54,484 bases of DNA, taken from assembly GCF_003334355.1 (NCBI RefSeq), contig NZ_QOWP01000027.1. One strand, written 5' to 3'. Source of the DNA: Escherichia coli. GTDB taxonomy: Bacteria; Pseudomonadota; Gammaproteobacteria; Enterobacterales; Enterobacteriaceae. A program made the translations under genes and the position numbers. A model generated the notes under the pieces. It was given only the letters and a program-made list of their open reading frames with translations. It made no database searches and was not told the DNA's origin. Positions 28,473 to 28,904 of the stretch are shown piece after piece. Within the stretch, counting starts at the first letter, position 1; every line of letters starts with the position of its first letter.

Positions 28473-28904
28473 ATGTCATTTACTGATATCTATCAGATTT
28501 CCGGCTCGGCGATGACGGCGCAAACGCTACGTCTGAATACCGTTGCCAGTAACCTGGCGAATGCCAATGCGCCCGCCAGCAGCGAGGCGCAGGCGTATAA
28601 AGCGCGCAGCCCGGTGTTTGCCGCGGTGTATCACCACAGCCTGCTGGCGGGTACACATCGTCATGCCATTGACGGTGCCAGCGTGCAGGTACAGGACGTG
28701 CTGCAAACCGGCGGGGCGGTGAAACGCTATGAACCGCATTCGCCGCTCGCCGATGCTAACGGTGATGTCTGGTATCCCGACGTCAACGTGGTGGAACAGA
28801 TGGCGGACATGATGTCGGCCTCGCGCGATTTCGAAACCAATGTCGATGTGCTCAACAACGTGAAAAGTATGCAGCAAAGTTTGCTGAAACTGGGAGAAGC
28901 CTGA
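28473..28904 (+). CDS. lfgC: Flagellar rod protein, FlgC homologue (uninterrupted frame)
   Basis: 143 aa, continuous from N-terminal rod motif (…LRLNTVASNLANANAP…) to C-terminal motif (…DVNVVEQMADMMSASRDFETNVDVLNNVKSM); no frameshift or internal stop. Confidence 0.9.
   Translation: MSFTDIYQISGSAMTAQTLRLNTVASNLANANAPASSEAQAYKARSPVFAAVYHHSLLAGTHRHAIDGASVQVQDVLQTGGAVKRYEPHSPLADANGDVWYPDVNVVEQMADMMSASRDFETNVDVLNNVKSMQQSLLKLGEA

Follow-up and report, generated by a model that had tools for sequence, protein, structure and literature searches.

The lfgC gene of an Escherichia coli Flag-2 cluster is intact and of the FlgC type, with the frameshift of strain 042 absent

Main finding

The window analysed, a stretch of 54,484 nt of E. 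coli contig NZ_QOWP01000027.1 (assembly GCF_003334355.1), contains an uninterrupted lfgC gene, which is very probably an ordinary wild-type FlgC gene of Flag-2, the secondary flagellar system of the lateral type, with the reported lfgC frameshift being private to strain 042. The frameshift belongs to 042 and is not a property of the Flag-2 locus in E. coli; the window carries the common form of the gene, which is maintained by selection. These findings correct a possible misreading of the literature, in which the lesion of 042 might be taken as general to Flag-2. The features on which the analysis is based are listed in Table 1.

Table 1 Features of the Flag-2 locus in the window
Feature	Position (nt)	Strand	Description	Basis
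Flag-2 cluster	9242..47069	.	complete, lfhA to lafU, 41 genes, all frames open	identity to PSS-12, mapped annotation
lfhA	9242-11335		first Flag-2 gene, open; cluster end	
lafK	15859-16845		sigma-54 activator gene, open	
-24/-12 element	28083..28098	+	sigma-54-type, TGGCATGGCGATTGCT; putative promoter	37 nt upstream of lfgB ATG
lfgB	28135..28470	+	FlgB-family rod protein	TIGR01396, RefSeq annotation of identical PSS-12 sequence
AAGGG run	28461..28465	+	Shine-Dalgarno-like, within the end of lfgB, 8 nt upstream of lfgC ATG	sequence reading
lfgC	28473..28904	+	FlgC-type proximal rod protein, Flag-2 paralogue, 143 aa, intact	ORF, profile and structure matches
GCGC tract	28518..28521	+	(GC)2, unexpanded; (GC)3 in 042, where it is the frameshift site	alignment, 042 translation
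lfgD	28904..29617	+	FlgD hook-capping protein; 1-base overlap with lfgC TGA	ORF list, sequence, annotation
lafU	46146-47069		last Flag-2 gene, open; cluster end	

Reading frame of lfgC and its junctions with lfgB and lfgD

In the six-frame ORF list, lfgC was a single ORF with an ATG start and no internal stop, and the continuity of the frame over 143 codons that an earlier note on this DNA had claimed was thereby borne out. Upstream, the TAA stop codon of lfgB (28468-28470) is followed by a GC spacer (28471-28472) and then by the lfgC ATG at 28473; the two genes thus abut with 2 nt between them, and the overlap previously claimed for this junction was wrong. The overlap claimed for the other junction was found as TGATG, in which the lfgC TGA (28902-28904) and the lfgD ATG (28904-28906) have the A in common. 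The AAGGG run is well placed as a putative ribosome-binding site of lfgC, and translation of lfgC may be closely linked to that of lfgB across the 2-nt gap and to that of lfgD through the 1-nt overlap.

LfgC as a member of the FlgC family

LfgC scored 132 bits against TIGR01395, the NCBIfam equivalog model for FlgC with a curated cut-off of 102.1 bits, residues 6-141 being matched to profile positions 3-136 of 137. The conserved rod motifs that had been claimed for the two ends of the protein were present as Pfam domains, namely PF00460 (Flg_bb_rod; residues 9-32, E = 3.7e-6), which covers the N-terminal rod segment with the SNLANA signature, and PF06429 (Flg_bbr_C; residues 102-140, E = 7.4e-11), which covers the C-terminal rod/hook segment. 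Among FlgC chains of solved basal-body structures, 8z5s_g aligned by its residues 1-136 to LfgC 1-141 (E = 2.8e-25), and 7bin_V by its residues 1-134 to LfgC 1-142 (E = 7.8e-25). The gene 5′ of lfgC was FlgB by TIGR01396 (105 bits versus a cut-off of 59), whereas the gene 3′ of it matched the NCBIfam FlgD models below their curated cut-offs and was annotated with a FlgD N-terminal domain; lfgC is placed between flgB- and flgD-type genes of a rod/hook operon. It is a bona fide FlgC-family gene, and a chance ORF is ruled out.

The FlgC of the Flag-1 system in Salmonella and E. coli, known from cryo-EM of basal bodies (e.g., 7bin, 7cgo, and 7e80), is homologous to LfgC from end to end and shares with it the Pfam domains at both ends as well as the flgB-flgC-flgD gene order. 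It is nevertheless a distant paralogue from a separate flagellar system, and LfgC exceeds it by 9 residues. Judging from Salmonella FlgC, its homologue, LfgC would be a substrate of the type III export apparatus of Flag-2, and helical segments at its two termini would then mediate polymerisation into the proximal rod atop the MS ring. There it would form the second layer of the proximal rod in the Flag-2 basal body, between FlgB and FlgF.

Promoter signals upstream of lfgB

Of all sites in the window, just the -24/-12 element upstream of lfgB fitted the sigma-54 consensus TGGCAY-N5-TTGCW without mismatch, and the equivalent exact match of 042, at L002:19581-19596, had the same relative position and was the only one in 50 kb. 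When one mismatch was allowed, 8 matches were observed in the window versus 5.8 expected, which is no enrichment; support for the element comes only from where the exact match lies and from its conservation in 042. Scanning nt 27,900-29,900 for sigma-70 promoters and terminators yielded no more than expected from shuffled sequence, and no hit lay on the + strand close to lfgB or lfgC. The sigma-54 element is probably a LafK-dependent promoter of the lfgB-lfgC-lfgD... operon. Transcription from it would make lfgC the second gene in a rod-hook operon of the lfgBCDEFGHIJKL type that depends on LafK and sigma-54. Flag-2 would differ in this respect from Flag-1, the rod operon having an apparent sigma-54/LafK-type promoter in the former versus an FlhDC-dependent class 2 promoter in the latter; this comparison draws on how lateral flagella are generally regulated in Vibrio and Aeromonas.

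Two possible starts were noted for lfgB, an ATG at 28105 in the mechanically called ORF (121 aa) and an ATG at 28135 in RefSeq (111 aa). Since the -12 element ends at 28098 and the transcription start is predicted at about 28108-28111, downstream of the ATG at 28105, the start at 28135 is favoured. Sigma-54-like elements with one mismatch, a class whose overall count is at chance level, were also seen at 26424-26439 (-), just upstream of a lysine-N-methylase gene (25460-26389, -), and at 40904-40919 (+), just upstream of lafB/fliD (40951-42267, +).

Comparison with the frameshifted allele of strain 042

According to the finished 042 genome paper (PMC2808357) and the E. coli W genome paper (PMC3032704), both citing Ren et al. 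2005, lfgC of enteroaggregative E. coli 042, the Flag-2 prototype, is frameshifted, which is thought to inactivate Flag-2; the latter, citing the same source, also gives the swarming assay of 042 as negative. In RefSeq NC_017626.1 the gene (EC042_RS01425, flgC) is 434 bp long and flagged as a 'frameshifted' pseudogene. The earlier note had mentioned a frameshift in lfgC of the prototype Flag-2 strain and had proposed a pairwise alignment as a check; its statement agrees with both papers, with the RefSeq flag, and with our own alignment, in which the window allele was not identical to the reference and the reference did have the frameshift. A single indel separated the two genes, that is, 2 bp (GC) added in 042 after nt 45, giving GACGGCGCGCAAAC in 042 versus GACGGCGCAAAC in the window. 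Translation of 042 lfgC reaches a stop at codon 22 and yields a product of 21 aa (MSFTDIYQISGSAMTARKRYV, then the stop), whereas the window reads through; the 042-type inactivated allele is absent from the window, which has GCGC versus GCGCGC. The lesion of 042 is the gain of a third GC unit by a short tract of two, which truncates the protein at 21 residues, and because this stop removes the rod subunit, assembly of the hook and filament should fail.

The 042 gene occupies the same locus between lfgB and lfgD and shares about 95% nucleotide identity with that of the window. With the 2-bp insertion set aside, 22 nt differences were counted, 19 synonymous and 3 nonsynonymous; the latter fall in two codons (N32E and S36G), no amino acid differs over the final 107 codons, and the LfgC deduced from 042 after removal of the insertion is identical to that of the window at 141 of 143 positions. 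This excess of synonymous differences indicates that lfgC is under purifying selection and that 042 acquired its lesion recently.

Frequency of intact lfgC in E. coli

The lfgB-lfgD segment was found in 1,280 of 5,426 complete E. coli genomes, so that about a quarter of them carry the lfgBCD region, and in each of the 1,280 one location alone accounts for 80% or more of the query, which indicates that no large insertion is present there. The two alleles were distinguished by short junction probes, in which the flanks on either side are too short to seed a megablast match on the other allele. The 44-nt junction centred on the 042 insertion was found in 1 of the 5,426 genomes, 042 itself, a figure that measures the frequency of the 042 lesion and not that of other lesions possible in lfgC. 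The insertion-free junction was found in 801 genomes with the window version of the probe and in 1,140 with the version carrying the 042 flanking SNP, i.e., in at least 1,140 of the 1,280 lfgBCD-positive genomes. About 140 of the 1,280 had an exact 28-mer seed match to neither probe; they probably carry nearby SNPs that break the seed. At least 1,000 public contigs carry the exact 143-aa LfgC, and lfgC has been reported to be intact in E. coli W and Crooks (PMC3032704) and in the ST131 strain EC958 (PMC4637896). Intact lfgC is, then, the common wild-type state and is already published for strains other than 042. The significance that had been implied for an intact copy is unsupported, the 042 lesion having been found only in 042.

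The Flag-2 cluster of the window and its relatives

The cluster sits between yafL/rayT and dinB, with the flanking rayT and dinB in place, and nt 9016-49575 of the window are colinear with the 042 prototype at 94-97% identity. Much closer relatives were found: nt 8105-49617 share 99.976% identity with strain PSS-12 over 41,513 bp without gaps, and the Flag-2 region is 99.9% identical to that of ST540 and other strains. When the PGAP annotation of PSS-12, in which no Flag-2 gene is flagged as a pseudogene, was mapped onto the window, all 41 Flag-2 CDSs had proper starts and stops and no internal stop. Those identified by this RefSeq annotation as present and open include the genes for LafK, the sigma-28 factor LafS, the lateral flagellin LafA, and the stator proteins LafT and LafU. 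The closest known lfgC genes are those of PSS-12, ST540, ATCC 8739/Crooks, W, and EC958, which have the same gene order and the same length of 143 aa and show no notable difference. In PSS-12 the annotated flgC (WP_000010949.1) is 100% identical to lfgC of the window, and lfgB-lfgC-lfgD is nucleotide-identical throughout.

Over 41.5 kb, 10 positions distinguish the window from PSS-12, and lfgC contains none of these. All 10 are coding and 9 change an amino acid, in lfiR, lafK, lfiH, lfiJ, a glycosyltransferase gene, a lysine-N-methylase gene, lfgI, and lafU (two changes). The pattern could reflect very recent mutations not yet purged, a relaxation of selection, or errors of sequencing in either record.

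Alternative explanations and functional meaning

An intact gene need not mean a used one, and a plausible reading, though one somewhat less likely than not, is that Flag-2 is open on paper yet silent in E. coli, being never induced or decaying at the regulatory level. In EC958, in which lfgC is intact, tests at 28 and 37 degrees C revealed neither LafA protein nor Flag-2-dependent motility (PMC4637896); W and Crooks were described by Archer et al. (PMC3032704) as being without motY and maf-5 and possibly non-functional, the same authors noting that the swarming assay is not specific to Flag-2; and the prevalence of lfgBCD given above implies that Flag-2 is deleted in most E. coli. On the other hand, the 19 synonymous versus 3 nonsynonymous differences in lfgC across about 5% divergence point to continuing purifying selection, 41 of 41 Flag-2 genes are open in the window, and 042 retains the sigma-54 element that precedes lfgB. 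Beyond E. coli, De Maayer et al. (PMC6993521) reported that the full gene set is kept in 78% of enterobacterial flag-2 loci and that Flag-2 is functional in Plesiomonas.

The state of EC958, with lfgC intact and Flag-2 not expressed, means that an intact gene is not equivalent to a working system; intact lfgC is necessary, and far from sufficient, for use of Flag-2. The description of this copy as a potentially functional allele was nevertheless a fair one, given the open frame, the full-length FlgC match above the cut-off, the 19:3 ratio of substitutions, and the open state of the other Flag-2 genes. That the strain could go so far as to build a working, conditionally expressed second flagellum, as its 41 open genes and conserved putative sigma-54 promoter might suggest, is a doubtful prospect; no working Flag-2 flagellum in E. 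coli is demonstrated in PMC3032704, PMC6993521, or PMC4637896. If it did so, the window would offer a good template with which to repair or complement the 042 prototype. For the question of whether any E. coli expresses and uses Flag-2, the finding adds no testability beyond that already offered by the published genomes of W, Crooks, and EC958.

It is very improbable that the frameshift of 042 is a sequencing or assembly error and that no true allelic difference exists. True, only 2 bp within a short GC repeat are affected, and a single genome record shows the lesion, but it is described in both PMC2808357 and PMC3032704, the strain is negative for swarming according to PMC3032704, and an insertion of 2 bp is atypical of an error in Sanger finishing. 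Least credible of all, to the point that it can be set aside, is that lfgC of the window arose by secondary reversion from an ancestral gene with the frameshift, since nothing favours this except that a (GC)n tract is able to slip both ways, while the insertion junction is confined to one genome, the at least 1,140 insertion-free genomes span 90-100% identity, a strong synonymous excess would be unexpected after a period as a pseudogene, and a single recent insertion into an ancestrally intact gene is by far the more parsimonious account. The window as a carrier of the 042 allele, or of a revertant of it, was rejected, the insertion being absent and the 042 junction being found in 042 only. 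The wild-type reading of lfgC, with a lesion private to 042, is retained.

Other differences from 042 around the locus

The spacer between lfgD and lfgE (29618-29776) is 159 bp long in the window versus 23 bp in 042 and includes an inverted REP pair (BIME: GCCTGATGCGCTTCGCTTATCAGGCCTAC ... GTAGGCCGGATAAGGCGTTCACGCCGCATCCGGCA). Located within the rod-hook operon, such a pair could affect how stable the mRNA is or how strongly lfgBCD is expressed relative to lfgE onwards. More REP copies were observed, both within the cluster and around it, near 5013, 8338, 9084-9219, 15699, 22745, 22797, 31726, 34927, and 40669.

Two small ORFs of 92 and 86 aa lie at 6845-7386 (-), between yafK/dpaA and yafL, and presumably resemble the yafQ-dinJ toxin-antitoxin pair of K-12. 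This interval is about 840 bp in the window versus about 230 bp in 042, which indicates that the pair is absent from 042. Between lafW and lafZ, a RelE/ParE toxin and HTH antitoxin pair present in 042 (L002:29887-30537) is absent in the window (38360-38417) and in PSS-12, in agreement with what PMC3032704 reported for W and Crooks.

Beyond the right end of the cluster, at 49633-50364, about 1 kb is missing relative to 042 (L002:41889-42909); this deletion takes away the greater part of an RtcB-family RNA ligase gene as well as the beginning of prfH, both of which are thus remnants in the window. At the left edge, nt 1-252 share 91-94% identity with ISAs1-family transposase fragments of 042 (L001:20444-20695 and 23647-23898), which points to an IS remnant there.
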